Source of the DNA: Callorhinchus milii
Taxonomy: Eukaryota
Direction of reading: 5' to 3'
DNA length: 64,000 nucleotides
Assembly (NCBI RefSeq): GCF_018977255.1
Contig: NW_024704742.1
Coordinates: 8,124,001 to 8,188,000 of the forward strand
The notes under the pieces were generated by a model. It was not told the DNA's origin. It did not search any database and was given only the letters and a program-made list of their open reading frames with translations. Of this stretch, positions 33,241-61,535 are shown in pieces (positions within the stretch are counted from its first letter, which is position 1; each line of letters starts with the position of its first letter). The position numbers and the translations under genes were made by a program.

Positions 33241-33320
33241 TTTGCAAATTTCACCAAGGTAGCATTTCTGGGCACGAATCCTGTATGGAACTGAATTTGG
33301 AACATCTTCATGGAAGTCAT
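33241..33320 (-). CDS. GAK: GAK exon (ex18), C2
   Basis: MTSMKMFQIQFHTGFVPRNATLVKFA(K); 80 nt. Confidence 0.97.
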
Positions 33321-38530: not shown

Positions 38531-39059
38531 TGTATCAGTAGGAGCCAAAGCACTTGGCCATGGTTGTGAGCGGAGAGAACAGCCAGAACTGGATTGTGGA
38601 AGGGCAGTTGAATAAGACGGACATTAGGGAAGACTGGATTAGTTTGGAGTACAGCATTATTGCACAGCACTGCATTTACATTCTGAACAGGGTTTTGCAA
38701 TGAACAACTAGGTCGGGATTCAGAACCGGGTTCAAAATAGAAGCCAAACACGCAACTGCTAAAGGTGCCAAATTACTGGATTATTTCTTCAAAATTATAT
38801 TCACCCACCCGGGAAAGGGAAACCACATTTATCTCAGATCGAGATTTGAATCCTTCTTAAAGAATAGCAGTTGATATCAATTATATTTTAAAGCAGATTC
38901 AAAGGCTCTAAAATAAGGCGTATTAATGAACACAGATAATTTGAATTCCTACTAGTTACTTTGAGAATTGCTTTGAGACAAGTTATGGTACTGATTATCG
39001 TTGGCTCCAACCGCAACAAGTCAATTTTGCCTTTTGACTCATTATAGAGACATACTTAC

Positions 39060-39182
39060 AAGACAGTGGACAACACAGATATTCTTCTGATCTTGCTTTA
39101 ACCATAAGTGCATATTCTTGCAAATATTGAACAGATTTCGTAGACTTGGAGCACGTCTCGCAGGCCAGCCACATTCAGAAAC
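39060..39182 (-). CDS. GAK: GAK exon (ex14), PTEN-like
   Basis: VSECGWPARRAPSLRNLFNICKNMHLWLKQDQKNICVVHCL; 123 nt. Confidence 0.97.
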
Positions 39183-40989
39183 CTAGGATACAATGCAATA
39201 CAAAATGACATTTGTATAGCGTATAGGATTGACAAAAGTGAGGCAAAAAATGTGAAGCACAATCTTAAAAATCAAGATCTAATTTTCTTCAACAACCTCT
39301 ACATTTAGCAATGGGTCAGAGTCACTGATCAGCCCAATTTCAATAAGCAGTTCAAGTATTCAGAGTTAAAAAGTAATGTGATTAATACCTAAACAATAGC
39401 TTTTTGGGGGGGGAATTAAAAAACACCTGTTCAGAAATTACTATGCGTTTTCGATCCAATAAAAGAAAATGATCATATCTTTGAACTAAGAAAAAGTCAA
39501 CAAAATGACATGATTTCCCTCTTTTAAAAAACATTTGACAGCATTTTCTAAGCAACAATCAAAACAAAGCTACGTAGTAATTTTGCCAAACCAAGAAATA
39601 TCTGAAGCTGCAATTACAGAATTTAGTCATTCTACACATCAGAAAATTCCTGGCTTTTTACTGGTAATTTCACGTTTCACTTCTTCCAAAGCCACCAATT
39701 ACTTCTTATTTTACACAACTTCCTAAGTCTAAAATCAAACGGATTTAAAAGTTAATTGAGTGTGTGCTCCTTCTGATGTGTCCATGGATAAATGCTGCGG
39801 TTTAGTGTTACTCTTGGCCACACAAAACAATAAAACAATAAGCAATGGATTCAACTGCTGCTCTGTTAATCTCAACCAAGCACTAAACTGCAACAGTCAC
39901 AACATTGACTTCATGTCACTGTAGAATCCTAGTAACCAACATCAAACGTTGCTGGAAAAGGTATTTGTAGGCCAACACTTCTCATGTTCTTAGACCTTTA
40001 AGTCCTTTAAATTTAAGCTCATGTAGAATTGTTGAATATTCTTAAATTGTCTGCCTGAAACATCAAGTCTAAATTTTAAGTATTTTTCAAAATTCTGCAC
40101 AGGAAATGGTCTTAATAAGTCCAATGCACAGTCGTTCCACTTCACAGTGTATCCTGTGAAGTGCTCTGAGATGTCCTCCTAACAAGAAAGGCGCTATACC
40201 AAATGCAAAGATTCTGTATGCGGCCATGATGAATTTGGGGAAACTGGAGTTTTCAGAGAACGAGAAATTTCTGGTAAACCAAATCACCAACATATTGATT
40301 AAGATCACATCCACACTTTTGGAAAGGGTTGGAGATGGACACCATGAGAGACCTGAAAATTAGTGCAGGAGGGGGAATGTACCTTATAAAAAGATAATAG
40401 TAGAAAGATTATCTTGTGTTTTACATAGATACAGCAAGGGATCCTAATAATAAAAACAATAATACTAAACCTTGCATTTGATATAGCGCCTTACCACGTC
40501 CTTGAGATGTCTATAAAACATCAATCCTAGACATATATAAAAAAAAATTCCCTATAACAAAGATTCCTCTTGCTTGAAGTCGGGTGGAGCCGGTACATCA
40601 AATTAACAGGTTTAGCCACTTTGATCCAATGTGAGACACAATCAGTCTGTAGTTGTTTGACCCCAGGAAAGTAAATTACTGGCGTACATTCAGAAATGTT
40701 CAGTGACAACAGTATCAATACTGATTTGGGTCACGTTTGCAGATTCGGTGGAACCTGATGAATGGTTTCAAAGGAGACGGCAGATTGGATAGGTGCAACC
40801 GGTAAAGTTTAATCAACCAAACGTTAAAGTTTCACTGAGGTTTAGCGAGCGGAAACGTGACTTGTTTTGAGATTTTAATTGCTGATCTGTACGGCTGCTT
40901 CACCAATTCTACAACAGTAATATTTTCGACACAGTTCTAATTTTCTTCCCTCTACATCTGCTTAAATGCATTAACTTATGGTCAGCTAC

Positions 40990-41271
40990 AATAGAAGCCG
41001 AACACACAACTGCTAAAGGTGCCAAATTACTGGATTATTTCTTCAAAATTATATTCACCTGCCAGGGAAAGGGAAACCACATTTATCTCGGATCGAGATT
41101 TGAATCCTTTCTTGGGTATTTTTCAAAATTTTGCACAGGAAAATGGTCTTAATAAGTTAAGTCTAATACACAGTCATTCCACTTCTCAGTGTATCCTGTG
41201 AAGAGCTCTGAGATGTCCTCCCAACATGAAAGGCGCTTTACCAAATGCAAAGATTATTCATACGGCCATGA
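40990..41271 (+). repeat. Composite local duplicate of 38736-38857 plus 40080-40230
   Basis: Direct alignment by eye. Confidence 0.9.
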
Positions 41272-41682
41272 CGCATTCCCTCTACCTCTCCTTAAATCCA
41301 TTAACTGTATCTTGTAGTTAGATACAGTTCCTCGGGTGCTAGCCATCTCCAAGGATCTCACTCAAGTAGCAATCTACATGTGTGCTCCTGCGCCGTGAGT
41401 GCTGACAGGCTATTGGAATGTGCGTAGCTTCAGAACCAAGTCACATCCTGTTTTCCATCAACACCTTAAAGTAAAATTAATATTCTTATTAAAAGTACAT
41501 TCCAGCAGTTGGTATTGAATAGGAGCTGGAACCTTCCTTTTACCACCTCTCCCACAGGCAGAGAGGTCTAAGTAGGACCACTTGAAACTGTTGTTTATTT
41601 TTATTAAAAAAAGTGCAGTTCTGTTTTAATTAACATCTAAGATTTCTGTAATAATAACCTTTGGCATTTTTTTTCCACTTAC

Positions 41683-41831
41683 CCGGTTATGGAACCTGGA
41701 GGACCTGTAGGTTCGCTGTGAGAGATTATAAACTGCATAATGACCTGGATGGTGTGAGTCTAAGAACAACCTAACATCCTCAATGTTGTTTTTGATTGCG
41801 GACTCAACACCTTCGGCTGGAAATGACATAA
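41683..41831 (-). CDS. GAK: GAK exon (ex13), PTEN-like
   Basis: VMSFPAEGVESAIKNNIEDVRLFLDSHHPGHYAVYNLSQRTYRSSRFHNR; 149 nt. Confidence 0.97.
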
Positions 41832-42283
41832 CTGGAAAAGAAGAACAACAAAATGATATGCACGGGACGCAGAATTTCCTGGTGACATCCTTTCGATAAT
41901 CATATACTGTGTGCAGAGACAGCCACTGCACTTGTGCTAATGCTGCTGCTAGTGGAAAAATGGACCAAAAAATATATTTAAGCACTGCAACAACTTGCAT
42001 TTATGTAGCGCCCTTCACATGGGATAGAGTCTGAGCGACTACGTTTGTAAGAACCGCCAGCAAAATCAATTTGCCATGAAAACAACAGTGCCAGGAGTAA
42101 GCCAAACTGAATAATGCCAATACTTGCACTTATGGTGCTGGACATAGGTTGGGAGGGTGGGTATGTTGATAAGCAGCACATTTTCAATTTAAAAATCTTC
42201 CTGTTTCCTGAGTCAGTGTGGAATAGTCAGATATAATCCAATAGTAGGAAGCAATTTCAATAATAATACTATTAATATGTATA

Positions 42284-42640
42284 ATATAATCCTTGCATTT
42301 GATATAGCGCCTCATCATGTCTTTGAGATGTCTCAAAGCGCTTCACAGAATATACTGCAAAGTGAATTGACTGTATATTTTGTGGGCAAATCGCGGCAGC
42401 GAATTGTGCACAGCAGTGTCCCACAAAGAGTTGTGGATTGAGTGACCAAAGTTTTTTTAAGGAATTATTAGCCCCGGAAAAGCGATCCGCAAATCGATTA
42501 ACAACTGGGTTCCTAATTACTGCTAGGTAAGCAGAGGTGCGTGGAATAACGAAACTTGCCCAATGTTTCGCCCTGTCAGTAATCAAACCCAGGTCTCTCG
42601 CTTGCAGAGTGCTCTAACCACTAAGCTACCAGATTCCACA
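42284..42640 (-). mobile_element. tRNA-derived SINE
   Basis: Same family. Confidence 0.9.
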
Positions 42641-43962
42641 GATAGATTCAAGGCTGTGATCTATCTAAATTCCTTCGATTAGATTACGGTCTTGAAATCA
42701 ACTTCCTGGCAGCTGCTGTTCTCTACGGAACAGATTTAAGAATCTGTAATTGAACGAATGTTCATGCAATTCATTTTCAGTGATTCCTAAAGCTAATTCA
42801 TAACCTTTAGTGAATACTAAATAAGGCTTATTATAACATTTTTTAAAAAACTGTGCTCATACTCACTGGTTATTAGACACAGTTGATAGCTTTTAAAACC
42901 ATCGGTCATTAACTTATCCTTCATATCGATAGGGTCACAAAAACTACATCATCAGATTCCATTAATCATAGAAGACTTAATGGTACAAACTCAAATGGCG
43001 ATTTATTTCATTCAGTAGTAAGTACAGTAAAAGCACAAACAAAACAAAATCATGAACTGAAAAAGTCAAGACAGCCCTCATAGATTACCTAACATCACCT
43101 ATTTATAGATGCATTCAAGAGGAGTGCTCGAACCTTCACATGAGGAAAAAGAGCATAGAAGGGTTCAGGGAGGGAGTCAAGAATGGGTGGAGACTCTTGT
43201 GGAGTATAAACACCGTCACGGACTGACTGGTTGAGTCCAGTGGCTTGTTTCTATGTTGTACAGTTTGTGCAGATCTTGTACACGCAAATAAATATATTCA
43301 CCATTCTGGGGTACAGGTTTCAGGGGTTTAATAAACTAGCTGGCACAGAGGTTTCCATTGTAGCTACAATATTACACTTGTATAGTGTTTTTCACGTCGG
43401 GAGGATGTCACAAGGCGCTGGACAGTCAGGGATCTGGAACCCGAGTAGGAGGTAGAAGGGCAACCAAGGGTGCGGTGGAAGAGGAGGGTCTTGAGACGTG
43501 CCTTGAAGGAGGGAAGGGAGGGAGCAAGGTGAAGGGAATGTGGGATGGGCGGTGGGGGGGATGCAGAGAGGCTGAAGACACAATCACCAATGGGGGGGAA
43601 GTGGAGCAGGGAGGCTGGCAGTGCGGATGAGAGGTTTGCCCCTAGGGTCTGGGGCCGGTGGGCCTTGCGACAATAATGGGGATGGGGCGGTCAGTGTGGC
43701 TGCTGCTGAGGTGCCAGCGGTGAGCGCCTCAGTGAGCCTGATGGTGGATTCCCAAGCTGGAGCAGAGGGAGGCTGTGAGACGGTCAAGTGGGGATAGCAG
43801 GCGAGGAGGTGGAGGGAGAAGAGATCAGAGCGGGAGTGACAGGATAGAGGACAGGGGTGGGGGTATTTTGGGAGGAAGCAGCTCGGGTCGGGAGTGGCAG
43901 CAAAAATGCGCACACCGAGACTGGAGGCAAAGTGATCAATGAGGCATAGTCAGCCCGCAGGC

Positions 43963-44250
43963 ATGGAGACAGCGGGGGCTAGAGGAGAGCGCGGGGGCTA
44001 GAGGAGAGCGCGGGGGCTAGAGGAGAGAGCGGGGGCTAGAGGAGAGAGCGGGGGCTAGAGGAGAGAGCGGGGGCTAGAGGAGAGAGCGGGGGCTAGAGGA
44101 GAGAGCGGGGGCTAGAGGAGACAGCGGGGGCTAGAGGAGAGCGCGGGGGCTAGAGGAGACAGCGGGGGCTAGAGGAGAGAGCGGGGGCTAGAGGAGAGCG
44201 CGGGGGCTAGAGGAGAGCGCGGGGGCTAGAGGAGAGCGCGGGGGCTGGAG
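43963..44250 (+). repeat. 19-bp G-rich minisatellite (AGAGGAGAGCGCGGGGGCT)n, about 15 copies
   Basis: Direct reading. Confidence 0.95.
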
Positions 44251-44589
44251 TAGTGCAGAGGGGAGAGGGGGGGCAAGGCACTCATTGTGTTATTTACCAG
44301 GATCCCCAACCTCAAAGATAACTCGGAGAAGTTTACAGGGAGAAGAGGGAGGAAGGGAAGGCGATAATAAAAATCAAAATAAGACTATACTAAACCTGAA
44401 TCCAGGGTTTGAAAAACTGGCGTGCGGAAAAATGAGCAATAAGCAGAACTTATTACCACTATAAATAGCTTGCTGCTGTCAAAAACATCTACTGACATAT
44501 CTACCAGTTAAACAGTCTCGTTCTAATATAAATAGTTTCAAGAATAGTAAATAGTAATACAAAAAAGACATTCAAAACGTCTGACTTAC

Positions 44590-44639
44590 CAGCAATTCTT
44601 GAAGTAACGTATGAAATATCCAAATCCCCTTTAGCGTAG
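44590..44639 (-). CDS. GAK: GAK exon (ex12), start of PTEN-like domain
   Basis: YAKGDLDISYVTSRIA; 50 nt, phase 2-1. Confidence 0.96.
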
Positions 44640-46840
44640 CTGGCCAGAAACATATTTGTAAAGGTTAGTGCAAGTTACTCTTATTCAAAAAGAATCTTCA
44701 ACAGTGGGAGATAGTTTGACCCACAAGCAAAGAACACTTTACCATTGCTAATAAGGTAATGACAAATAGGCTCTGAAAGTCATGAACTGTGGGAAACTCA
44801 GTGCTGCATTCCTTCCATTTACAAACACAAAATCTGTTTAAATCGGTCACTTTTAGTTGTCTGGAAAGTTGCACTCTTCAATCAACCTTGTCCATCTTAA
44901 ATACCAGTATGTTGAGTGCAAATGTATCCTCTGGGTTCAGAGACCAAATCTGAACATTCTCAAAAGGCAGTGATTTAACAGCAACCATTTACATTTATAT
45001 AGCACATTTCACATTGGGAGGGCATCTGAAATTGCTTCACACAGCTGACTGGGGAGCTTGAGCTGGAGAAGGGGGGAGAAGCAGGAGGTTCAGAAAGGCG
45101 GTCAAAATTGTGGTAGAAAAAATAGCTCTTACGGTGCTATATCTAGGGGCTATATCAAATGCAAGGATGATTATTATTTCAGTTTAACGGATACTTTTAG
45201 ATTAAAGTTAAAATTGAGAATAGTTTCAAATTGGCTGCTAAGTTCGCTTACAAACTGCAGCATCATTGAAAGGTTTTGAGATATTTTGATAATGTCATAA
45301 GGTTCGCTATCAAATCATGGATTATTATTATATTGTTACTCATGTCAATGCGATTTAAATAAGTAATGGCAGCACTAAATTATAAAGGGCAGGACTGATT
45401 AGAAGGTCTCACTTTTTTTTAAGAATAGGAGCAAGAGGATCACCTTTTAGGTCACAGAAAGCAAATAATCCTTGCATTTTTTGATATAGCGCCTTATCAC
45501 GTCTTCGAGACTTCTCAAAGCCTTCACAGAAATATACTGTAAAGTGAATCGACTTTATATTTTGTGGGCGAAACGCGGCAGCCAATTGCGCACAGCAGCG
45601 TCCCACAAACAGTCGTGGATTGAAGTGACCGCGTTTTTAAAAAAAAATGTTTTAACCTTGTCATCACGCAACTACCATTTTATCATCTTATAAATACCAG
45701 CGTATAGAGTACACATTTATCCCCCGGGATCAGAGACCAAATCTGAACATGCTTTCTAATAAAGATAGTCAGATCAACAAGATAACCTATACTACTTTCA
45801 CCTTCCTCCCCTCAGTAGACAATATGAGGAGGCATCGGTAGGGCACGATTTGCTGGACACATCCTCATGCACCACATATCAGCCTGTTCTGCTGGTGCAC
45901 AGTTTAACACAAAATAAATAATTTAAAATATCATTGCATTTGATATAGCGTTTTCATGTCAGAAGGACATCTCGAAGCGTTTCATAGAATTCATTGTAAA
46001 GTACAATTTTAGGCAAAAAGTGAGAAATCTAAATGTAGTAATGTAAAAGACAATTAGCAATGAAAGAGCATATGGGAAACTACACTGTGCGTATTGCAGT
46101 CATATCTAAAAGTTTACAACTGTGCAGCATGAAATCTATATCAGTCCCCCTCCCTCCCCACCCTCAAATCCCGCCGAAAGAACTTCCTTTTTGATGGTAC
46201 TTATAGTCACCTCCCGTCTCCCTCTCCCTCAGCTCGTTGTCAAGACACCGCCCCTGTGAAGCACTCCAAGATGCTGCCCCATGTGAAGGGCACTGAATAA
46301 ATGCAAGTTGTGGATGTTGAAGTTGTTGTTATGTCATGCTTTTGATATTAAGAGGATTGTGTTTAACATGCCAGCAACTCACAAACCACACACACATAAC
46401 GTGTTAGATTTAAATCCATGTTTTTACATCAGATGTATATTGCTTAGATAAATTTCAACTGAAAACTAATTACAAATTCTGCAATATTAAAGGGAAAACG
46501 TTAACATTGCCGTCACATTTGCAAGGAGATACGTTAAAAAAAAGTTTTGGTAATAGCCTGACTTCCTTTCATAACGTCGGTCAATTAGTCTATATGAAGA
46601 ACACCCGTCTTAACTAATCCTCTCAATATGCTGTCTATATTTAAAATGTTAAAATTAAAACAAAAGTTATACAGTATTATAAATAATATAAGCCCTTGAG
46701 AAGAAACATATTGAACACCTCTATCCTGAGATTTGTGCTTGCAGCAAAAGGTAATGAACACACAAAGATGGCTTTAATTCAATTAATAAAGAAGCAAAAA
46801 CATCCACGTCACCAGCACACAAAACCAACAAAATATTTAC

Positions 46841-46849
46841 CTGGGGTTG
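46841..46849 (-). CDS. GAK: Candidate 9-nt GAK microexon (adds N-P-S)
   Basis: ttgctttctttctttctcaacatctttgtgcgtctggtag|CAACCCCAG|gtaaat; frame-preserving, phase 2-2. Confidence 0.6.
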
Positions 46850-47559
46850 CTACCAGACGCACAAAGATGTTGAGAAAGAAAGAAAGCAAGCAGTGAATGA
46901 CAGGCTGAACAGTCAACATGGACACAGACAGGCAGCAATATTCACAACTCAGAACAGAAAATGTTAGGCTCATGATACGAATGATTGTCAAAAAAGTAAC
47001 TCGCTCCCAGATGACAGACGGCAAATTACAAGAGAAATGCAAAATTCAAAACATTTAATAGGATAATGAGAATGACCATGGGTGCTCACTACAAAGTTAA
47101 CATGAAAGAAAATATCTTATATATAAATAAGATAACTTATCCAATCTAATTCCCCCGTAGATTTAAATAACTCAAGTCTCTTTAAGGCCAAGAGAAATAG
47201 AGCAGTGATCATTTTTTTTTTTAAAAAGTACATCCTTAAAATACTAATACTTTCGAATGATACTCCAGAGAGGGTGGATGATGCCATAATGCAGCCCACT
47301 CAAATTCATTGACAGAATATCCTAAACGAATGGCGGCTTAGCTTTTTCTGCTGGGCAGACATTTCTCTCCTACTGGCTAGTGTTACAAGGCAGAATTTTA
47401 AGACAAAGTAGTTCTGTAAGCAAGATTACATTAATGGGTGCAGTCAATGCGGGGGAGGAAAGAGGAAAGAGATTGCATGGAGTGGAGTTGTACCACAGGT
47501 TCACTATTTGCTAACTTTTCAATTTCTTGGTTGCATCCACAGAAATCTTTAAGCATTAT

Positions 47560-47900
47560 ACAATACAAAATTACATTTGTACAGAGCCTTTCAAGCCAGG
47601 AGGTTGTCCCAAGGCGCTGGACAGTCAAGGATTTGGACCAGAGCTGGGGGTCGGGATTGGGGAGGGTGGAGGGTAGGGAGGCTATGAGGGTGGCCGAAGG
47701 CACGATCGAAGAGGATGGTCTTGATACGTGCCTTGAAGGAGGCAAGGGAGGGAGCGAGGTGAAGGGAATGAGGGATGGAGTTCCAAAGGGTGGAAGTAGA
47801 GAGGCTGAAGGCCCGACCGCCGATGGTGGGGCAGGACAGGTGGGGGGGCGTGAAGCAGGCCGGAGCCTGCTGAGCCGAGGAAGCGGACAGGTTGATAAGG
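47560..47900 (-). mobile_element. L2 3' fragment (similar fragments at 1890-2048, 13592-13760, 43375-43620, 52980-53245, 55730-56200, 60610-60760)
   Basis: TIGGRAFSLSTSTLWNSIP...FKARIKTILF; shared tail. Confidence 0.85.
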
Positions 47901-48597
47901 ACGTAAACTTCTCTACTCAGATCTTGTATCTGGAGAAAAAATAGCTGGAAGCTGTGCAGCTTTCCATCACTAACTTGCGTTCTTTTTTCACTCGGATCAT
48001 TTACTGAAGCCCTGGATTTGGAGGCACTGTAGCAATGCAATCAGCAAAACTGCTGCTGCCTCCTCAGCGTCAAAGATTAACTTATAAAGAGGTGGGTGAT
48101 TCCAGCATTTCCAGAAGCAGTAAGTCCTGTCCCCCAAAGTCAATGGAAATATTAGCATCAGAGATGGTGACAACCTTGTTTTCTGACAAGCTGAGTCGAA
48201 AATCCCATGTGTATGCCCACTGTGGTCCTGCTCACCAGGCTATTTGTACCATTTTCGTTAGGGAATGTAGAACGCAGAAAAGTAAAGAAATGGAACTTAA
48301 AAACTGTGTACCGTTCTGCTTCTGTGGAAAATTTCCCATTCTAAATAGCAAAGCTATGTAAACGCAGCACCACTAACCAAGGAAACAAGTCATACTTTCT
48401 AGTAATAAAGGAGGGTAGAGTGAACTAAATCAATCTTTCTATGCTTACACACTTTGCTGTTTAAACATTTTCCACAGGGAGGTGTAAACTGAACAGTAAA
48501 CTGGAAGGTATTCCTCTCAAGACAATGAGCACCTCATGTGTCTGTTCAATAGTTATTTTGTGAACAAAAACTCGAATATTTGCTCAGCTCCACTTAC

Positions 48598-48715
48598 TTG
48601 GCAACAGACTGAATCATTTTCGAAGACGTATCTTTGATGTTAGTTAGGAATCGCTCTGTGCCACCTTTAAGGATATCGAAGAACCCGCCAGGGGGCGATA
48701 CATCATTTTCATTAG
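48598..48715 (-). CDS. GAK: GAK exon (ex11)
   Basis: (A)NENDVSPPGGFFDILKGGTERFLTNIKDTSSKMIQSVA(N); phase 1-2. Confidence 0.96.
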
Positions 48716-49189
48716 CTAAGGAAAAAAATAATGCAAACTTCAGCTGACTTTTGTACATTTCCAGTCACATGAGAATCACATGTTCACTGTTTCTACAGCA
48801 CAGTCAACAGTAAAATCACAACTGGCTGTGCAAGTAGGAAGTACGTAGCTTACCCTCTGCGGAATGATTAAGTTAGTAAAATGACTAAATTATTCTTTGC
48901 AATTGAACAGTGCTCCACTTTATATGTGCGCTCTCTTTTTCTGGGGCAAATGTGTTTAACTAAATGTTGTATAAAATTAAATCAGAGGTATTTAGATTAA
49001 CCAAATTTAATTAAATATTACTAGAGATTCCCGTTAAAACTATTTAACACAAAAGACTTAAAGCAATATATGGGACATCTAAACAGGGACAGAAGCAAGA
49101 GTGGCGCTGAACTCCAGGAGTAATCAAAGATTGCCTTGGGATTCCAGGCAGAGGAAAAACTTTGGAACAGTTTTTCAGTTTATTTCTTT

Positions 49190-49536
49190 ATAATAATAAT
49201 AATCCTTGCATTTGATGAAGCGCATTATCACATCTTCAAGATATGTCAAAGCACTTCACGGAATATACTGTAAAGTGTATGATCTATGGGTGAAACGTGG
49301 CAGCCAATTGCGCACAGCAGTGTCCTACAAACAGTAGTGGATTAAAGTGACAATTCTTTTTTGAAGACCCCCAGAAATGCATTCCGCCAATCGACTAACA
49401 ACCGGGTTCCTACTTACTGCTAGATAAACAGAGGCGTTTGGAGTAAGGAAACTTGCCCAACATTTTGCTCTGCCAGGAATCAAACCCAGGTCTCTCACTT
49501 GCAAGGCGAGTGCTCTAACTACTGAGCTACAGGACT
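49190..49536 (-). mobile_element. tRNA-derived SINE
   Basis: Same family. Confidence 0.9.
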
Positions 49537-51151
49537 TTATTTCTTTATGGGTGGATTTAGGAGTATCCTATTCCGATACACCTTGGGACCAAAAAGGACA
49601 TCAAACAGACACAAAGATTTGCACAATTTGCATTTTTTTACAGAAATCAATACATCTTCTTAGTACAGTTTGAAATGTGTCAATTCACTAGGTTAAATAA
49701 TCAACGTCAAAAAATTCTAGCAGACGGGTGCCCTCCATGGCAAGTTTGAAGTAATTAAACCAACCTTTTCAGTTTTACAAACTTTAAAAAACAATTCTGT
49801 AAAATGTGGGCAAGGATCACGAAACAAGTGGTTTCCACATTCTGCTGATTTAAACCATGAAGAACTCTTAAAATATAAAACTAAACACCAGTCTTCTAAA
49901 CTATGGCAATTTAGTGATAGTTTCGCGGGCGGCAACCAAAATCTCATCAATAATAGTTGGTCCATCTCAAAACAGTTGTATCATTCCTAAAATACTGAGT
50001 CAATAATAATAATCATTGCATTTGACATAGTGCCTTATCACGCCTTCTAGACGCCTCAAAGTGCTTCACAGAATATACTGTAAAGTGAATTGACTATGTG
50101 GGCAATTTGTAAAGTGCAATGTAGATATTGCATCAAAATAACTACAGCATAAACTCCCAAAACCCAAAGGTATACCGTCTATGCACCAGTAACTTGAACA
50201 TTAACATTCTTTTTCCCAATAATCCACAGAATTTGTTCTGATCAGCATTTAGATCAAGGACGGTTTTGTGATGAAAACTGGACTGAAACTGACCAAATCT
50301 CTTCACACATTAAATGCAGTCGCCAGAGACAGTCTATTACTTTAGTCATCAAATAAAAGAAAAACAATTCTGTAGTTCCAGCAGATCAGAGTTCAAACCC
50401 CATTTTTGATTATTAATCTTCTCTTTATAGGTAAAATATAGCCTTCTCTCAGTTGTGGAGAGATCACTTTCTTTATAAGAGAGTCAGAAAAAGTAAATCT
50501 CATGCAATTTTCTCCTCATCTCCTGAAAGTATTTCGCTCTTTCATTCTACTGGGACACAGTTCTGTAAGCACCAGTGACTCTTCAGTACCTCATCCAACA
50601 GACCATTATTCTAGTGTGAGAAAAGGTAGCAAGTACAAAACAGCTACGTGATAATAGGATGCCTCGAAGAAAAGTATTATTCTCCTGAAAAAACATACAC
50701 ACACACACATATATATACTCTACCAGGAATCGTCTGGCACTGTTACTGCAGATTCAGGTGGAAATCAAAACCAGAGCACGTGTTGTTTTACATTTGCGAA
50801 TTAATTAGCACCGTAAAACATCACAATAAATGAAATAATCAAAATTGTGGCAACATCGAGCACACAACGATCTCTCCCTGGTGACCAGTTCCTGACGGAC
50901 TCTTCCCAACATGCGTTTGTAGAATTAAGATTCGGTTCCTCAATCTAAATCAACCAGACGGACGGGAAACACAACTAATCCTCTTAAGTGGCAAGGTAAC
51001 TTCGGTTTGCCTTTAGCTAGCTTTCACTTAAAGAGCTTTGAACGTATGAGTTCAACTTTTCACGCATCGGTTATCTTTATGCCTTTTCGATCAGTGAAAA
51101 CAATTCCGGAGTTCACTTCTCCTCATCTAAAAAAAAGAAAATGTTACATGC

Positions 51152-51263
51152 CTGCATTATGCATGTTGTTCGGTGGTCCTCCTGGCTTGCTCCAAGGTGG
51201 CGGTGAACTTGCCGTTGTCCGGGCTGGGACACTGTTGCCGAGCCCTCCATTGTGCTCCAGGAG
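51152..51263 (-). CDS. GAK: GAK exon (ex10), linker; GC-AG donor
   Basis: LLEHNGGLGNSVPARTTASSPPPWSKPGGPPNNMHNA; tctttgcag| acceptor; best phase-1 donor is CAG|gcatgt. Confidence 0.88.
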
Positions 51264-51323
51264 CTGCAAAGATTCGTAACTGTCACAATCAATCTTTCTC
51301 AGATAAGAGCCCGGCAGACTCAT
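51152..51323 (-). CDS. GAK: Alternative first coding exon of a kinase-less, auxilin-1(DNAJC6)-like GAK isoform
   Basis: In-frame ATG at 51323 gives MSLPGSYLRKIDCDSYESLQ-LLEHNG, matching the recalled DNAJC6 N-terminus MSLLGSYRKKTSNDGYESLQLVDSNG. Confidence 0.8.
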
Positions 51324-51700
51324 GAGAAAACTATTCAGGCACTCATACAATGAAGAATGCGGAGATTCCGAGCCACCAGTTGCACATTATTCTGCATCGT
51401 GGCAGAGCAGCTATGAGCTTTTCTTCAGAACAAACAGGCCATTGGTGGGTTAGTGCCATTTCAATGATCAGCTGTAGCACTTGCGAGCAGGCCTAGCGCT
51501 GTCCAACTGGCTTCAGGCCCAGCCTTCATCAGTACACGTAGCTGACTGCACCGGGCCTGGCCTGTTTGACGGTTAAGCTCATTAAGATAGCAGATGAGCA
51601 GATTAAACGATTATCCAGCTCTTTCTCTTCTTAAATGTGCAAATGGTCGCCCTTATTCGTTCTTTTTTGTTTTTAGGATCTGCTCAACTTTTCAACAACA
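51324..51700 (-). promoter_or_regulatory. Putative internal promoter/5'UTR of the short GAK isoform
   Basis: Repeat-free, locally GC-richer stretch upstream of the alternative ATG; CCAAT on minus strand (51441-51445); RE1-like half-site GCGCTGTCC (51496-51504). Confidence 0.45.
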
Positions 51701-52152
51701 TTTAGCTCTTTTAGGAGAATTTAGAAAAGCTCTAACATACTAAATGACAACAGGAATATGAAAACGTGGGAGCCCAGACAATAATCGTGCGAGAAAAATA
51801 AATACAGCATGAGCTCCCCTGACCCTTTAAGAAGATGGTCTTCACAAGATCTAATGCTTCTAATCCTGCAATAAGCCACATTAAATTCAGAGACAACAAA
51901 GTTAAAAAACTCTATAACAACAATTTGCACTTATATAGCACCTGTCACAAAGTATTCCATCTAAAGCACTATGCAAAGACAGTTTGGATAACTAGGGAGG
52001 GGGCGGTAACTGACCCAAAGCACATTCAAGGTCAGGTGAGGATGGCTATAAATGGGTATACAGTGTGCATTATCCAACATAAAGCCTCAATCAGGTATTC
52101 AGGCCTTCCCCCACAAAATACAGTCTGCACTTCATGTACTCCATGTATTACA

Positions 52153-52516
52153 TCCTGTAGCTCAGTGGTTAGAGCACGCGTCTCGCAAGCGAGAGACCTG
52201 GGTTTGATTCCCGGCAGGGCAAAATGTTGGGCAAGTTTCCTTACTCCTCACGCCTCTGTTTACTGAGGGATAATTAGGAACCCAGTTGTTAGTTGATTGA
52301 TGGATTGCTTTTCCAGAGATAATAATTCCTTAAAAAACAATAAATTGTTCACTCAATCCATGACTGTTTGTGCAATACTGCTGTACACAATTGGCTGCCC
52401 CATTTTGCCCACAAAATATACAGTCAATTCACTTTACAGTAAATTTTGTGAAGCGCTTTGAGACATCTAGAAGACATGATAAGGCGCTGTACCAAATGCA
52501 AGGATTATTATTATTA
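52153..52516 (+). mobile_element. tRNA-derived SINE, full length
   Basis: Complete head, body and tail. Confidence 0.92.
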
Positions 52517-53689
52517 CATCACGGGAAGCGTTTTGTGCTATCCTCTTAACTTGGAAGGTGCTACATCAAATGCAAGGATCATCATTATTGCATCTCAATA
52601 CCTTTGAAGACATTGGCAGAGAATGAGTTGATGCAACAAGTCAAAAAACATTGTAGTGCGAGTCTCTTGAAGAGTCTTCCAACTAGGATGCCAACGCTGA
52701 CTGCCACCACAACCCAGGTGCGACACTGAGTCTGAATCAGGCACTCTGCTCAGAGAATTCAGCAATCAAGTTACATTATTGAGACACATTGCCCACACGC
52801 TGCCTGAAATCAAGCACATCCGAACGTTCAGCAGATCTTGCACCGACCGCTTTTAGTTGGGATTTCCCCAGTGCAGCATGTTGAATTTTCAGAACTGATT
52901 CTTTGAAAGAGTCTGGAGACGGTTCAACTCCTTAGAAAGTTTGGAGACAAGTCTGACGTAAATTGTAGACATTGAATCCAGCCTACTGCATGTCCCTCGT
53001 GCCCTCTGTTCCATTGGTGGGCGCGCTTTCAGCCACTATGCCCAGAAACTCTGGAACACTCATCCTCTATCCCTCCACTTTGCCCCTTCCTTCAACTTCA
53101 GGTCACGCCTGAAGACTTTCCTATTCGGCAACGCCTATGGACACCTTCCCCCTCTCCCCGGCTCGGAGTCGTGCTCCGTCACTGTCGAGCGCTCTGGGAC
53201 GCTACCCTGCATGAGGGGCACTATATAAATGCAGGTTGTTGTGGTTACTGGAAAGGGTTATTGTCTGGACACCAATGCCTTGAAGCTAGCCAACTGGTAC
53301 CAACAACCTGAGAAGAAACAGACCGCCTGAAAAATATGACAAACTAAAAGAACTTCAATGTTTCCCTCACAGAGACCTTGCATGTTCAGTCAGCTCAGTC
53401 ACTACGGGAACATCAGTTATAATAATACAATATTATAATACAAGCTTCATGTACAGCTCTATTCAATCCAAAGCTGCCCAAGCACAGAGAGCCCTCTACT
53501 GGTTTCATATCATATGCAGCCTTATCCAGCCAATAATGAGTTTCTGTGTAGCTCAGAAAGTTTCAGAGTACTTCCGCTCACCACCAAATCCAAAGTGCTG
53601 ACTTCAAATGAAATGAATGGAGCTGCTTTCTACACAGACACGCATTCCTGCTCCATTGGAGGAGCTTAGTATTGAAATAAACCAAAATA

Positions 53690-54057
53690 TAATAATAAAT
53701 AATCCTTGCACTTGATAAAGCGCTTTTCAAGTCTTGTAGACGTCTCAAAGCGCTTCACAGAATATACTGTAAAGTGAATTGACTGTATATTTGTGGGCGA
53801 AACGCGGCAGCCAATTGCGCACAGCAACGTCCCACAAACAATCGAGGATTAAATGATCAAATTTTTTTTTTTTTTGAGTGATTATTATCCCCAGAAAAGC
53901 GATCCGCCAATCGACTAACAACCGGGAGCCTACTTAATGCTAGGTAAACAGAAGAGTGCAGAGTAAGGAAACCTGTCCAACATTTCTCCCTGCTGGGAAT
54001 ACAACCCAGCTCTCTCGCTTGCGAGGCGAGTGCTCTAACCACTGAGCTACAGGATCC
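53690..54057 (-). mobile_element. tRNA-derived SINE, full length
   Basis: Complete head, body and tail. Confidence 0.92.
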
Positions 54058-56493
54058 CAAGGACATACAGTGTGAAGGTATTTCAATATACGGTAATTAT
54101 TCTGGATCCAGTTGTAGATGGGCGACAGTCAGTGTTGTTAAAAGGATTTTCTAAGTGCATTAAGCATGTGAAATTTTCTCATAATAGGATTGTGATGTTT
54201 CTATACTGTATGTAATTGAACGTTGAAAAACGCACTGCATTTTGTCCTACAATTATCTGGAGGAAACATTTTCGGCTACTTATGAGGTGATGTGATGAAA
54301 CTCCTGACCTTGTTGTGGTAGCGGCGGTGATGAATAAAGATCTGCTATGCACAATTGGCTGCCGCGGTTTGCCCAGAAATATACAGTCAATTCATTTTAC
54401 AGCATATTCTGTGAAGCGCTTTGAGACGTCTCGAAGAAATGATAAGGCGCTATATCAAATGCAAGGATTATTATTATTCGAGATTCAGAATAAGGGCCCT
54501 CGGCATATTTGATCTAATCATTCCAAAATACCAAACCTACCTTCTTCCCATTACATTATCAAGATGTTTCTTACATTAGTCTAGAATCTTGAGCTGAACA
54601 ACCCTTCTTGGTAGGTAATTGTACAAGCAGTTGAATACCATCTGTGCAAATAAATATCTGCTAATTTTCCCTCTTTCTCACAGAGATCCATTTTTTTCCC
54701 TTTCTCCTAGCAGTTCCATAGGCTCCATTCACCAGTCAGTACCTCACCCAAGTAACTATTATTCAAGTGCAAGTTTTGATAGTAAATGTTGGACCAATCT
54801 AATTAGGGCGCAAAACAGCATAACTGTACTGAAAAAGCATTTCTGGAACCTGCATTTTATCATGAGAATAAAATTTAAAAAATCCTTAAGTTTGATTTCC
54901 TTCACTTTGTTTCATTTCTTTCCACCTTCACATTGGGAGGACATCTCAGTGCTTCATTGGATATGCCTTAAAGTATTGTGTTTGTGTAAATTATGTAGGC
55001 CGATAACTTATACTTCATGGGCACTTTAGCCAACAAAAACAGCATAAATCTTATAAGTGAATAAACTGTCTCCTGTGCATCGCATATGCAGCATATTCAT
55101 GAGTATATACATGAATATACTCATGTAGCATTTGAGCAGGTTTCAGAGATAGGGTGAGGCAAGACCATGGAGGGATTACAAAGTGAAGACGAGGCTCTTG
55201 AATGCGAGCTTTGAGGGCATGGGGTGCCTGTGGAGCCAGACAAGTTTGAGGTGATAAGCTCGCAGAGCCTGGTGTGGGAGAGGACATGAGCTGCAAAGTT
55301 CTGCACAGCCTCCAGGACTGATAGGCAATTGGTCAGAAAAACATTGGTCCTGGAATCAAGGGTGGAGACAAAAAGGGACTTGGGTGCCATCTGCATACAT
55401 GTGGGGGTTAGGGAAGATTCTCCCAAAAGAAGGACTCACGACTATGATTGAAATCTTTAACAATGCACAAATTGCCTACAACTGCTGTGATTGCCTACAA
55501 ATACAGTTGCCGCACTTCACAGTAAAATCCTGTGAAGTGCTTTTGAACGTGTTGAAGACACAATAAAGTGCTATATCAAATGCAACATGATGATTATTAT
55601 AATAAATTAAATAATACAACATCCAGCTACTACAGCACAAGCGATAACTGTGGATTCCTCAACCTATATGGTACCAGAAGCACAATTTGGTGACCTTGAA
55701 CAAAGGGCTGGTGGAATGCTTATTTGACACAACAACTGGCATTTACATAGTGCCCTTCATGCCAGACGGCGTTTCAAAGCGCTTAAGAGTGGTGGAGCCC
55801 GATGCCGAGCCAGGGGGACGGGGAAGGTGACTGTAGGCACGGTCAAAGAAAAAAGGTCTTCAAACCTCGACCTGAAAATGGGGAGAGGTGGGGCCGGGTA
55901 AAGGGATTGGGGGAGAGAGTTCCACAGCTTCGGGGTGTAGTGGCTGAAAGCACAGCTGCCGATGGTGGGGAGAAAGGTCCGGGGGACAAGGAGGAGACTA
56001 GAGCGTAGGCAGCGGGTAGTGGTGTAGAGAGAGAGCAGGTTGGTGAGATGTTGGGGGGGGAGGGGGGCATGAAGAGATTGAAATACAAGAGTGAGGATCT
56101 TGAAATTAATTCGCTCTGTGACAAGAGAGTCAATAGAGTTTGACAAGGACTGGGGTAATGGAGGTACGGAGCTTAGTGTGGGTGAGAATGCAAGCGGCGA
56201 AGGACACTAGCTCCTTTACTGTACTGCACAGTAAATAGTCTGCCTCCAAGTGATTTCAGCCTCTTCAACTTCTATTGACATTTAGGGTGAGAGTTGGAGA
56301 GATTGTGCTGAGTTGCAGAGAAGCTGAGTGCTGTCTGTTCAGAGATACAGGACAAAACTCACCTCAACTGCTGTTATCAAACCAAAGTGATTCCGTGTTG
56401 AAAAGGAATTTGAATTTAAAAGTTACAACTCAATTTTAATGTGACTTAACTCCCCCTTCGCCTCCACAGAAATTAGTGACGAACATTTCCTAC

Positions 56494-56606
56494 CTCAGTG
56501 ACTGGAGACTTTGGATTGATATTCCTAGCTGCAGCTATCTCCTGAAGTTGATTGACCACCTCTGTAATGGTCAATCTCTCCTCCGGATTGATCTTCATCG
56601 TATTTC
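56494..56606 (-). CDS. GAK: GAK exon (ex9), end of kinase domain
   Basis: (R)NTMKINPEERLTITEVVNQLQEIAAARNINPKSPVTE; 113 nt, phase 1-0. Confidence 0.96.
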
Positions 56607-57695
56607 CTGTGGAAATAATAAAGGACAAAGAAAGGATGAGTTGTTAGTCTGTAGTCAGGACCTGTCCTGCAACGTGATCTGAAACTCCAAGAACATATGT
56701 CAAACTTCCAACACTGAAGTTCAGCTGCTGGATCAAAATAATGAATCACAGCTTTATCCAGATTTTTAAACTGCATTGCATTGCAATATTCTACAATATT
56801 ACAGTACACTTGGCGCATACAATCACGGGCTATGGCCATGGGAGGCCAATCCGAAGAGGGGAGTGCGAGGATTCTATTCCTACTTCTGGGCAAAAATTAA
56901 TTTCTCATCCAATTGTGGACACTGACTATTTTCTTGTGCAGAGGTGAATAATGCACTTCACAATGCACTAAATGTAGACCAATAACATCTCAGGGTGAGA
57001 GTATCAGAAATGTGGACATCTTTCCCCAATATATTCAAAACTACACAACAACTGCAAATATGATTGATGAAGTCTGATGTCACGTGCTCTATGCTGTATA
57101 CTTACGCAGTATTCAATAGTAAAATTATAAGCGCATGCACTTCCTGTGACTACATTAGCTGTACATTAGCTGGGGGCTTGTATGAGCATCAAAATACGAT
57201 CATACAATTCAACTATAATGTTCTGCTAATAAAAACCAATATCAAAAATTCAACCAACAGGACATTTATAATCCAACCAATAAAAGCTCACTCCGACCAC
57301 CTTAAGCAATCGTAAAGTTTGGGAAATAAACAATGTGTAAATATAATTACCACATTTATTTCACGAAAGGGTATTGTCAAGATTAACAACTTTGAGTAAA
57401 GCTAAGCAATAATCTCAATGATAATTGATAATTTTAAACCATGAACAAGAAGTTAAAGTAGTTTAGGACTGACATGATGAAATTATGCTCTTTGCGTAAA
57501 CACCATCATTCTTAAAATATTTACATTGCAAATTGAGTGGAGGCAATTTGTCTTATTTTTGCTGCTTTATTTGTATTGGATATCACATTAGTCTTCAACG
57601 CCCAGAAATTGTAAGTGAACACACAAGGTGAACTATTAATCATTGTGCAAATTTATCATGCAATACTGTAATTGATCAGCCAAACAAATTACCTA

Positions 57696-58693
57696 CAGTA
57701 GAGCCCCCTTTATAACACAGTAGTTGGAGTCCATAAAATCACAATTAAGGGTATAATGGCATGCGGAGTCCTGTAGCTCAGTGGTTAGAGCATTCGCCTC
57801 GCAAGCGAGAGGACCTGGGTACAATTCCCGGCAGGGCAAAAGGTTGGGCAAGTTTCCTTACTCAACACCCCTCTGTTTACCTAGCTGTAAGTAGGAACCC
57901 AGTTGTTAGTCGACCAGGGATAATAATAATAATAATAATAATAATCCTTGCATTTGATATAGCGCTTTTCACGTCGGGAGGACGTCCCAAAGCGCTTCAC
58001 AGAATATACTGTAAAGTGAATTGACTGTATATTTGTGGGCGAACGCGGCAGCCAATTGCGCACAGCAATGTCCCACAAACAGTCGTAGATTGAAAATGAC
58101 CAATTTATTATTGTTTTGGTTTTTTGGAGGGATTATTATTAGGCGTGTGGAGTAAGGAAACTTGCCCAAGGTTTCGCCCTGCCTGGAATTGAACCCAGGT
58201 GTCTTGCTTGCAAAGCAAGTGCTCTAACCACTGAGCTACAGGACTCCACGATAGGACTCCATAATAATTGCTTTTTAAAAAAAAATTTGGTCACTCAATC
58301 CACAACTGCTTGTGGGACACTACTGCGCGCAATTGGCTGCTGGGTTTCACCCACAAGATATACAGTAAATTCACTTTACAGTACATTCTGTGAAACGCTT
58401 TGAGACGCCTCAAAGATGTAATAAGGCACTATATCAAATGCAAGGATTATTATTATAATTATTATGTGAATGCTGATCAGAACTTCCACATTCACTTTTT
58501 CAGGAAGATAGCTGGCTCCATCCACACTTCAAAATGGCTGATACGTGGGAAGCCAAAACACTGACTGGCATTTTGAAGCATCAATGAAGTTGGAGCATGC
58601 ATTTTGGATTTTTGGGGGTAATTATCAGGGTGGAGGTCACCCCAATAAGTGAATCCACATTATAACAAAGCGCATTATAATGGGGTTCTACTG
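57696..58693. mobile_element. Tc1/pogo-like MITE containing two nested SINEs
   Basis: TA|CAGTAGAGCCCCCTTTATAA ... TTATAATGGGGTTCTACTG termini; related terminus at 61065-61112. Confidence 0.7.
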
Positions 58694-58716
58694 GAATTAG
58701 TTCAAAAAATACTTAC

Positions 58717-58852
58717 GAATGAGATCATGAAAAACTGTGTATTTGGTATCATTCTCAGGAATAGAGTACTTTCCATTCACTATTGCAAGTTTAGCACCAT
58801 CTTCAAATGGATGCTGTTTGAAACACAGTAGGTAAAGGATGCAGCCCAAAGC
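58717..58852 (-). CDS. GAK: GAK exon (ex8), kinase
   Basis: ALGCILYLLCFKQHPFEDGAKLAIVNGKYSIPENDTKYTVFHDLI; 136 nt, phase 0-1. Confidence 0.97.
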
Positions 58853-60049
58853 CTAAGGAAAGTTACAAGATGCATTTTTAATTATTAGTTTTATGCTATG
58901 AATTAGTGCAATCAATAATTGGTATTTATCTAGCACCTTTCAGCTAATAAATGTGTCAACCACTTTACAAATTCTAATTGATCAGAAATGTAAATAAATG
59001 TTATTGGTAAACACAGCAGCTAATCTGCGTGCCAGCAACTTCCCACAAATGAGTGAAATGAATGTACCTACTAGCCTAGTACAATCTCTGACTGCCAAAG
59101 AGGATTTTGTGCCGTTGACCTAAGATGGATATTTATGTGTGCATGGCACAACACCATCATCAACATCAGCATTTGCAAGGTACTTTGAGGACACAATTTT
59201 CTGCACTAAATCTAATTTCGGACCCTACTGTTTTCCAATCCAGGGAAGATCTTGCATTGTTTACCCGTTTCTAACCTGTTCCTTGGAAGCCATCTATTTT
59301 TTGATTGGAAAAAGTTTCAAGCTATAGCTAGTGATCGAAAATGTAGAATAAGACATTAACCCAAATAATCAAGAAGTGAACTAATAAAAGTGGTGATGTC
59401 ACAAATCCTTATATTAAAGCTGTAGAATGGAGAGGATCACATTGTAACTTAAGCAGAGAAGGTTTAAGATGAACAGAATTATAGCTCTTTTTAATCCTTT
59501 ACCTTTTGTAATATATTCTATTCTATTATATATCCTAAAAGGCGGTAACAACATTGCTTAGATGACAAGGCAATTCCTATGACAGAAAGTTGTGGGTTCA
59601 AGCTCCCTTCCAGCTCCCCTTCTGTACATGAGTTTACAAACCAGGACCAGGCAATTCTAAGAGAGTGCTTCATTGTCAGATGTACTGCACTTCATATGAA
59701 ACATTAAACCAAAGTCCTGCCTGGTACTCCGGTGACATTAAAAGATCCCATGACACTATTCTCAAAGAAAAGCCCTGACCAGCAACCCTCCAAAGAAATG
59801 AGTCATTCCCTTCATGGCTGTTTGTTGGATCTTGTTGTGCCCAAGTTGGCTGCAGTGTTCCCTACAAACATAGTCACTACACTTGACAGCCATCATCTGT
59901 AAAGTGTTTTGAGACGGTCAATATTGTAGGTGCTATATCAAATGCAGGGATTAGTATCATATACTGAAGTATAATAATCACCAAGGCGCACAGGTACAAT
60001 AACTGTTTTATAGCTGAGAAGTGTAATGCTCAGTGACAGACAGACATAC

Positions 60050-60139
60050 CCAGATATCTTGTTTTTCATTGATGGGATAGTTGGAATACAGATCTATTAT
60101 TTCTGGTGTACGATACATTGGTGTAGTATTTCTTGTAAT
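60050..60139 (-). CDS. GAK: GAK exon (ex7), kinase
   Basis: ITRNTTPMYRTPEIIDLYSNYPINEKQDIW; AG/GT; 90 nt. Confidence 0.97.
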
Positions 60140-61409
60140 CTGCCAAAACGAAGAAAAAGATTTTGTCAGGAGTTATTCTTAATTTACTAATTATGAAAAC
60201 ACAGAAATACACAAATACTTTGATATTATAACTATGAACATGCATTAGGACGCAATGTACACTATATTCCTATTGAATAAAATCGTAGTATTTTATAGAA
60301 CCAATGTTCATTCAGCCCATCATTTTGGTGCCAGTTAGGTTTGAACTTCAGTTTTAATTCAAACTTTTATTTGAATTATAATTTGAAACTTTTCTCACAC
60401 ATACTTCACATAAATAGCAATATACATTCATTAACTCAAATGCACTAACAAAGAAGAAAATAATACAAAGAACGGTTTTGTTGTTAGACAGGAATTATAG
60501 TGTCCTAACACACTATAATTGAACGTTAAATGTGGAGTGATACAGTAACATGTTGGCAAAGTTATTCAATTCCACATACTTCAGATTCTTCAAACAATTT
60601 TCAAGACCCTCATTGCTTCAGCCACTCCCCTACCCCTACCCTCCCTGCCCTCCTGATCCCAAACCTCAGCTCAGGTCCAAATCCTGGACTTTCCAGCGCC
60701 TTGGAACGTCCTCCTGACGTGAAAGGCGCTATACAAATGTAATTTGTTGTTGGTGGTGGTAGAACTGAGAATAACAAGTTTTGCTGTGGATAGCCAAAAC
60801 AGCTGTTCATACCAGAATTGGGGTGTAGATCCCAGTATGTACTTTACAAACTATCCTAAATGTACGCAGAAAGTTAGCCAGCTCACTTGAAAACACCATC
60901 TGGCTTCTTGCTCACTCAAAAATGCCCAGGTTCTGGGTCATCAGGGACACAGTTGATGTCATGTCCTGGGACTGGGTTTGCAGGAAGCCAGTCAGCTTTC
61001 TGCTTGGATGTGTAATGAATGTAGAAGTGCTGAACAGCAATCAAGCCCAGTTACAACGTTGCTGTGGATTTTGTGGGACCCAACCACTATGTTATAATGG
61101 GGCTCTACTGTACTAGGGCAATCTAACAACCTTCAACAAACATGGCACTTAATACTAGTCTTGATTGCCAGCCTCTCACTAAATTAAAAGGGAACAAATA
61201 CATGAAATAAATTGTATTCTTTGTAACATAGTAGATGAATACACTTGGCGAGTGCAAATGCATGTATATTAACCACTCATCATTTGCAGTAAGAAACTCA
61301 CTCACGCTTCATTTTAGATCTATCCAGTTGATGTCACTTATGAGCACATTCTGTAAACAGTCCCCACTGTGCATTGTCCTAGAAATGTTAAAAAAAACCA
61401 CACACATAC

Positions 61410-61535
61410 CTCTTCCTCTACCATTGCCCTCTTCTGGGCAGACCAGCTATAGTCAGGGTAGTGTGCTATACTGGTAGCACTACCAAAGTCACATAATTTA
61501 ATTGTGCCTTGGTTACTGACCAGGAGGTTTTCAAC
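61410..61535 (-). CDS. GAK: GAK exon (human ex6 equivalent), kinase subdomains VIb-VII
   Basis: VENLLVSNQGTIKLCDFGSATSIAHYPDYSWSAQKRAMVEEE; ttgcag| acceptor, |gtatgt donor; 126 nt, phase 0-0. Confidence 0.97.

Follow-up and report, generated by a model that had tools for sequence, protein, structure and literature searches.

Our analysis indicates that the last 60 nt of an intron in the GAK gene of the chimaera Callorhinchus milii encode, in frame with the exon that follows, a methionine-led peptide of 20 residues that closely resembles the N-terminus of auxilin-1 (DNAJC6). As to what this stretch does, comparison of sequences leads us to put at about even the chance that the 60 nt are a conserved alternative first exon, or coding start, giving a kinase-less, auxilin-like GAK isoform of about 1017 residues. 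Vertebrates have two J-domain cofactors for clathrin uncoating, GAK and DNAJC6, each with a link to Parkinson's disease, according to excerpts of two sources (PMC13230680, PMC12363757). The two go back to a single ancestral gene and agree in the positions and phases of their introns, of which GAK has 27 and auxilin 16-17; the excerpted text of Bai et al. (2010), which reports this, describes no internal start in GAK (PMC2821301). A 2026 review of DNAJC6, likewise in excerpt, mentions several transcripts but not a relation between the peptide and the GAK intron (PMC13230680). The origin of the working start of the kinase-less paralog is not addressed in the literature that we found.

The window, by which we mean the whole stretch of 64,000 nt analysed here, contains most of GAK as a minus-strand gene. 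When 17 GAK exons are joined at protein-guided GT/GC-AG sites, 851 of 851 residues are identical to residues 216-1066 of XP_042192659.1; GAK residues 1-171 lie outside the window, and the name "exon 10" used below follows the numbering of the initial annotation. Kinase, PTEN-like/C2 and J domains occur in this one gene, as seen when the precomputed domain matches of the database proteins P0004 and P0377 (PF00069/PF07714, PF10409 and PF00226) are mapped exon by exon onto the window. The locus is not an orthologue of DNAJC6, given the kinase exons upstream on the same strand and the complete identity to C. milii GAK over the 851 residues. The parts of the gene that matter here are the following.

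19913..61541, minus strand: the part of GAK within the window, corresponding to residues 172-1325 of XP_042192659.1 (tblastn with database GAK proteins).
56494..56606, minus strand: the preceding GAK exon, which holds the end of the kinase domain (...NINPKSPVTE) and has the donor GAG/GTAGGA.
51152..51263, minus strand: the LLEHNGG exon ("exon 10") of the kinase-PTEN linker, encoding LLEHNGGLGNSVPARTTASSPPPWSKPGGPPNNMHNA (contig joints and protein-guided search).
48598..48715, minus strand: the following GAK exon, where the PTEN-like region begins, reached from 51152 through a GC-AG intron.

The acceptor of the LLEHNGG exon is at 51263, since contigs in all four RNA runs contain the joint 51263-56494, which is GT..AG on the gene strand; the joint 51152-48715 (GC..AG) is likewise in contigs of all four, and the protein-guided junction search gives the same borders for this exon as the RNA contigs. 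The intron that follows it (48716-51151, minus strand) opens with the GC donor CAG/GCATGT. At the preceding exon, a sequence nearer the donor consensus, AAT/GTAAGA, lies nine bases 3' of the used donor GAG/GTAGGA (56485-56493, minus strand); the C. milii database models P0005 and P0011 take it (...VTEVGN), and no RNA joint at this donor is found among the joints listed.

Directly 5' of the acceptor lies the extension with which we are concerned.

51264..51323, minus strand: 60-nt in-frame 5' extension, an ATG and 19 codons, encoding MSLPGSYLRKIDCDSYESLQ (sequence, open frame and auxilin match).
51321..51323, minus strand: candidate start codon in the context CTCATGA, with no purine at -3 and no G at +4.
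51387..51389, minus strand: in-frame TAA, 21 codons 5' of the ATG.
51264..51272, minus strand: TCT TTG CAG, the final three codons of the extension (SLQ) and also the 3' splice site of full-length GAK (contig joint and junction search).

The initial annotation had placed here an in-frame ATG, 60 nt upstream of the exon and followed by no stop, and had noted that the SLQ codons double as a splice acceptor; both statements are correct. The ATG at 51323 is in the frame of the exon, exactly 60 nt 5' of the acceptor, and is the first in-frame ATG after the TAA at 51389-51387; the exon frame stays open for 41 codons upstream of the acceptor, up to that TAA, and the stop-to-stop frame 51386..51147 (minus strand, 80 residues) spans extension and exon, so that the translated peptide runs straight on into LLEHNGG. 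An open frame thus leads from an intronic ATG into a shared exon, as it would in an alternative first exon. Because of the TAA, simply retaining the 5230-nt intron could not connect the kinase to the extension in this species. As for the double use of TCT TTG CAG, the joint found in all four runs cuts at ...tctttgcag/CTCCTG. The pyrimidine tract of this acceptor (10 of 20) is among the three weakest of the 18 GAK acceptors in the window, which is to be expected if the bases must also code.

The proposed kinship with the DNAJC6 N-terminus is borne out by two auxilins, which align with the peptide Met to Met. One, from the fish Synchiropus, begins MSLLGAYKKKTSYDGYESLQLVDSGG; it is a kinase-less protein of 960 residues (P0126), called "auxilin isoform 1" by its sources (KAM8890369.1), and its cluster includes RefSeq isoforms of "putative tyrosine-protein phosphatase auxilin". 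The other, from the marsupial Gracilinanus (XP_044530700.1, P0151), begins MSLLGSYRKKTNNDGYESLQLVDSSG. BLASTP aligns the window peptide with the two at 14/22 and 14/26 identical residues, ungapped and residue 1 on residue 1, with an E value of 1e-6 for each single comparison. As a control, both auxilin 20-mers were slid along all six translated frames of the window: the 20-mer at 51323-51264 has 13/20 identities with the marsupial sequence and 12/20 with that of Synchiropus, while the other 127,882 20-mers reach at most 7/20 and 8/20, respectively. The likeness to auxilin is far beyond chance.

Moreover, the likeness extends across the exon border. The Met-led motif of about 20 residues, MSLL..Y....DGYESLQ, which we read from the proteins fetched, there being no curated family model for this peptide, stands at residue 1 and is followed immediately by L-(V/L)-(D/E)-x-x-G of the linker exon, with the BLASTP alignment reaching residue 26; the auxilin SLQ falls exactly on the GAK acceptor 51263. 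The long isoforms of auxilin-1 (KAM8890369.1, the Synchiropus splendidus isoform X1 XP_053739892.1 and XP_044530700.1 are examples) start with MSLLG(A/S)Y.KKT..DGYESLQ and go on with LVDS.G, corresponding residue for residue to the window peptide and LLEHNG. In these long isoforms the homologous peptide is the annotated N-terminus, and shorter isoforms begin at a downstream Met. A phmmer search of 1.84 billion representatives with residues 291-700 of the model P0005 (410 residues, counted from the peptide Met) aligned query residues 1-409 with residues 1-438 of the Synchiropus auxilin; the marsupial auxilin was a further match. Word-index protein searches with the peptide alone gave nine candidates each; these were C. 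milii GAK throughout, and the lack of any auxilin is explained by too few shared 5-mers. The difference between the two genes lies upstream: in DNAJC6 there are no kinase exons before the peptide, which is the annotated start, whereas in the window it is a putative start within the intron of a gene with kinase exons.

Is the peptide kept in the GAK genes of other species? A protein search with residues 285-520 of P0005 returned 1096 matches, of which the best 120 were examined. In 108 of these 120 the kinase exon (...SP[IV]TE) is joined straight to LLE(Q/H)NGG or part of the exon is skipped; 12 also cover the extension, as do four more from cluster listings, and the models that cover it come from Callorhinchus and eleven teleost species. 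Nine of the teleosts have, immediately before LLEQNGG, a peptide of 19-21 residues that opens with Met and closes with DGYE(S/C)LQ; the adjacency to the exon is that of the gene models. The peptide reads MSLLSSYYCLK(S/P)VYDGYESLQ in the cyprinids Cyprinus, Labeo and Sinocyclocheilus, MSLLSAYYCLKPTFDGYESLQ in Astyanax, MSLLNAYCWKPTYDGYESLQ in Scleropages, and MLS(A/T)Y(Y/H)CWRPV(Y/F)DGYECLQ in Myripristis, Sparus, Cyclopterus and Sander. In the Echeneis model a Met is missing from the aligned position; the Nibea model, which contains the last ten residues only, is uninformative for the Met. The ATG is conserved in 10 of 11 informative species, namely Callorhinchus and the nine teleosts, with Echeneis as the exception. 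The teleost peptides are as close to auxilin (9-15 identities) as to the chimaera peptide (7-12), and the differences in length (19, 20 or 21) keep the frame.

Averaged over 15 pairs from six lineages, identity rises from 0.10 in the 15 residues before the Met to 0.70 within the peptide, a step which places the beginning of conservation at the Met itself; in the teleost models the sequence before it is unrelated between species and in part resembles translated microsatellite. The chimaera and bony fish lineages separated more than 400 My ago. A step from 0.10 to 0.70 exactly at the Met, over such a time, has the look of the start codon of a constrained peptide, and the peptide as a whole looks protein-constrained in fish GAK. 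The genomic sequences beneath the teleost models are independent of one another; the models themselves are in part intron read-through or protein-alignment builds, carry no evidence of expression and exist only where the frame is readable, so that the conservation of the frame is partly a selection effect and inflated. In a scan of metagenome contigs for teleost GAK DNA, which gave six loci, only one extends as far as the kinase exon. This locus breaks off 158 nt into the intron, showing stops and no acceptor; short in-frame introns are not general in teleosts. A YESLQ-like motif is absent from the GAK linkers of amphioxus, starfish and acorn worm, as read from spliced proteins.

In the database models the peptide appears in another role. 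The read-through models of Cyprinus (A0A8C1Q5C5), Astyanax (A0A3B1JA86), Scleropages (A0A8C9WN69), Sander (A0A8C9YMH6) and Labeo (KAI2664986.1), from UniProt and GenBank, have the homologous Met-led peptide before LLEQNGG as an internal insert after unconserved residues, unlike the start proposed here, and in our searches we found it neither labelled as a start nor linked to auxilin. One could take these models at face value: the peptide would then be an optional in-frame insert of full-length GAK, placed between the kinase and the PTEN-like domain by an upstream 3' splice site or by a retained short intron in some teleosts, and its Met would be an ordinary residue. Indeed, 16 of 16 peptide-containing database models bear a kinase, and in cyprinid models of two different sources SP(I/V)TE runs on into STVVL-MSLL..., a joint that lies five residues short of the Met. 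The window, too, offers an in-frame AG upstream with an open frame to the exon, at 51343-51342, 78 nt 5' of the usual acceptor and at a codon boundary of the open frame, after cattcttcattgtatg.

51341..51343, minus strand: possible in-frame upstream acceptor, ..tgtatgAG/TGC, which would insert 26 residues (database model P0005 only).

However, that acceptor would be a GAG, and GAG is a poor splice acceptor; among the 15 best-supported joints listed (there are 294 further joints) none is at 51341. The model that uses it skips 15 residues by way of a 45-nt "intron", the mark of a protein-alignment model and not of RNA, and on account of this pseudo-intron inside the LLEHNGG exon we rejected P0005 as RNA evidence. 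Between kinase exon and Met the database models differ in length (from 5 to about 27 residues) and in content, including the microsatellite-like VCVCV, at the 0.10 identity given above, which suggests that the model builders were reading through an intron rather than following a conserved junction. Finally, the same Met is a start in auxilin. We regard an optional insert as unlikely.

The conservation could also belong to the bases rather than to the codons, if the 60 nt serve as a splicing signal (branch point, pyrimidine tract or intronic enhancer) and the auxilin likeness is frozen inheritance. The best-conserved part, DGYE(S/C)LQ, corresponds to the 21 nt adjoining the acceptor, and the exon, being skipped or shortened in the database models P0011 and P0088, may be regulated. 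But MSL and the Met are 52-60 nt away from the acceptor, the changes in length are of whole codons, the tract at acceptor 51263 is weak rather than strong, and the S to C change of acanthomorphs would break the pyrimidine run if it arose, as we infer, from TCT to TGT. Auxilin, moreover, keeps these residues, and none of the auxilin isoforms fetched has a splice joint there. Conservation as a splicing signal thus seems to us very improbable. Nor does an RNA gene explain it, since the extension matches no Rfam family and its fold is unremarkable (z = +1.17).

If the 60 nt are instead a coding start, ribosomes would have to begin in a poor context, with C at -3 and A at +4. There are 11 ATGs in the 600 nt upstream of ATG 51323; the three nearest lie at -23, -64 and -74, in other frames that close before it. 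Efficient translation from ATG 51323 is consequently to be expected only if the transcript starts within about 22 nt of it, or by re-initiation. A favourable context without upstream ATGs is thus lacking, a comparison that depends on the transcription start and may not apply. The first 400 nt 5' of the ATG show no CpG island (observed/expected 0.41-0.66). In favour of a start, the 280 nt 5' of it are clearly richer in G+C than the remainder of the intron; they contain, besides out-of-frame ATGs, a CCAAT at 51445.

51324..51600, minus strand: G+C-richer block, a candidate 5'UTR/promoter (0.49-0.525 G+C against 0.35-0.41 beside it).
51281, minus strand: Ser/Gly difference, AGT in the window against GGT in a contig of run X1 and in P0005.

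The weak Kozak context and the upstream ATGs would suit a third alternative, in which the Callorhinchus element is a homologous, once functional start that is no longer used in this species and is decaying. Its peptide is the most divergent of the GAK copies (7-12 of 20 residues identical to teleosts), with a Pro at position 4 and a Cys where others have Tyr or Phe before DGY, and the C. milii entries XP_007897231.1 and XP_042192659.1 come without a kinase-less isoform. The residue at 51281 is a Ser in the window, whereas every other GAK extension or auxilin seen has Gly there, so that an invariant Gly would be polymorphic here. The X1 contig differs from the window there (T>C on the plus strand, Ser>Gly) and just 5' of the ATG (51338, G>C), and the Ser/Gly difference is either a polymorphism or a difference of assembly. 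Against decay, the ATG and the frame have stayed intact for more than 400 My, and 13 of the 20 residues are still those of marsupial auxilin; a neutral intron would not keep the peptide, and the neighbouring 15 residues upstream have decayed to 0.10. We consider a disused relic quite unlikely.

A coding start would predict a short product. Among the GAK models fetched, none is a kinase-less GAK protein starting at the peptide Met. Fragments excepted, all of the best 120 of the 1096 matches have kinase residues upstream, and the peptide-containing models (16/16) all place the peptide inside kinase-bearing proteins. The canonical kinase-linker junction, with no start at the peptide Met, is found in 61 models from sharks, rays and others and in 24 further models (gar, bowfin, coelacanth, lungfish and teleosts), and the two NCBI entries for C. 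milii GAK, XP_007897231.1 and XP_042192659.1, include no kinase-less isoform.

The RNA consisted of assembled contigs from four runs, all with spliced GAK; contigs of this kind reveal neither transcript starts nor transcript levels. Over the extension there are only unspliced contigs, which continue into intron 9 (X1, 51236-52208; X3, 51322-52203; X2, 51312-51530), giving 0.9 kb of unspliced sequence from the exon through the extension up to a SINE. Their mean word depth is 2.8-5.8, against 7-100 for the spliced contigs of X1-X3 (6.45 in X4), and similar contigs of low depth occur elsewhere in introns 9 and 10. These unspliced contigs match the expectation for precursor RNA or DNA carry-over and speak neither for nor against the short form. 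The X1 depths at the exon 10-11 joint (100) and the exon 9-10 joint (78) are too noisy to use.

Several other kinase-less or anomalous models came up in the searches. An invertebrate kinase-less model, P0134, was rejected as a 5'-cut ORF of the kinase-bearing P0379. Two "cyclin-G-associated kinase-like" models without a kinase domain come from Pecten maximus (P0132, 1067 residues) and Apostichopus japonicus (P0133, 933 residues). A bird kinase-less GAK ORF from an assembled-read source (P0092, 973 residues, eight members) starts inside the linker exon, with MTSVSQSSKPAGQ...; it was called on a 4.7-kb contig and may be a truncated ORF from a transcript that retains an intron or varies at its 5' end. 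In the C. milii UniProt models P0006-P0009 and P0011, intron is read as FALFFSLANEND before the next exon, an artefact.

How could two such different proteins arise from one gene? In the usual mRNA the 60 nt would be removed with intron 9, TCT TTG CAG acting as the 3' splice site. A second mRNA would begin inside intron 9 and hence contain no upstream donor; the acceptor would then go unused, the exon would be extended at its 5' end, and translation would proceed from ATG 51323. The product, of about 1017 residues, would lack a kinase and begin with the auxilin-type peptide, followed by linker, PTEN-like and C2 domains, clathrin-binding region and J domain. This is the architecture of auxilin-1 (DNAJC6), in which the PTEN-like, C2, clathrin-binding and J regions come in the same order as in the predicted GAK short product. 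With canonical GAK (auxilin-2; C. milii XP_042192659.1, P0377) it would share the gene and all exons from LLEHNGG on; canonical GAK differs in having a NAK-type kinase domain, with ...SPVTE joined directly to LLEHNGG and the 60 nt spliced out.

The peptide is common to GAK of chimaera and teleosts and to DNAJC6 of a teleost and a marsupial, which implies that it was present before GAK and DNAJC6 separated. DNAJC6 would then most simply be the copy that kept only the short form. We accordingly offer, as a tentative proposal on which we would place somewhat less than even confidence, that the early-vertebrate GAK/auxilin gene made kinase-bearing and kinase-less forms, that DNAJC6 retained the short one, its SLQ marking a former splice site, and that GAK in fishes, and possibly in other living vertebrates, still makes a cryptic auxilin-like protein. 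The ancestral dual promoter and the auxilin SLQ as a fossil splice site, both put forward in the initial annotation, are reasonable inferences. In subfunctionalisation, isoforms from alternative promoters are partitioned between paralogs after duplication. DNAJC6 would likewise keep only the short form of a two-form ancestral gene; the present case would differ in that GAK would still have both forms and in that bases of the long form's intron and acceptor would also serve the start of the short one. While an alternative first exon and the partition of isoforms between paralogs are thus a known mechanism, the present instance appears to be undescribed: a literature search, made partly on excerpts and with subscription journals and database annotation notes outside its scope, found neither a kinase-less GAK isoform nor a link between the auxilin N-terminus and the GAK intron.

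If this proposal is correct, the start and peptide shared by DNAJC6 and the GAK intron would answer the question of where the working start of the kinase-less paralog came from, the short form having existed already. It predicts a kinase-less, auxilin-like GAK product in fishes. Such a product would bear on how far GAK can replace auxilin, and on the reading of knock-downs aimed at kinase exons, an example being the zebrafish exon-3 morpholino described in the excerpted text of PMC2821301. Should the element prove absent or silent in tetrapods, it would still illustrate neatly how isoforms can be partitioned once a genome has been duplicated.

Some further features of the window deserve mention. 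Copies of a tRNA-like SINE lie in the GAK introns, at 52151-52222 (plus strand) and at about 48960-50370, 52050-52610 and 53740-54580; the first of these, a tRNA-like SINE head scoring 45.6 bits, is the only Rfam match. Word depths of contigs in the SINE stretches run from thousands to hundreds of thousands in the four runs, all intron contigs break there, and SINE-related ORF-like strings (14 protein letters) recur across the window. Two near-identical open frames of 139 codons, 3 kb apart on the minus strand (174-590 and 3222-3638), are repeat copies. Downstream of GAK, also on the minus strand, there are lysine/glutamate-rich open frames at 905-1516 (204 residues) and 5101-5859 (253 residues), which are probably exons of a neighbouring gene.
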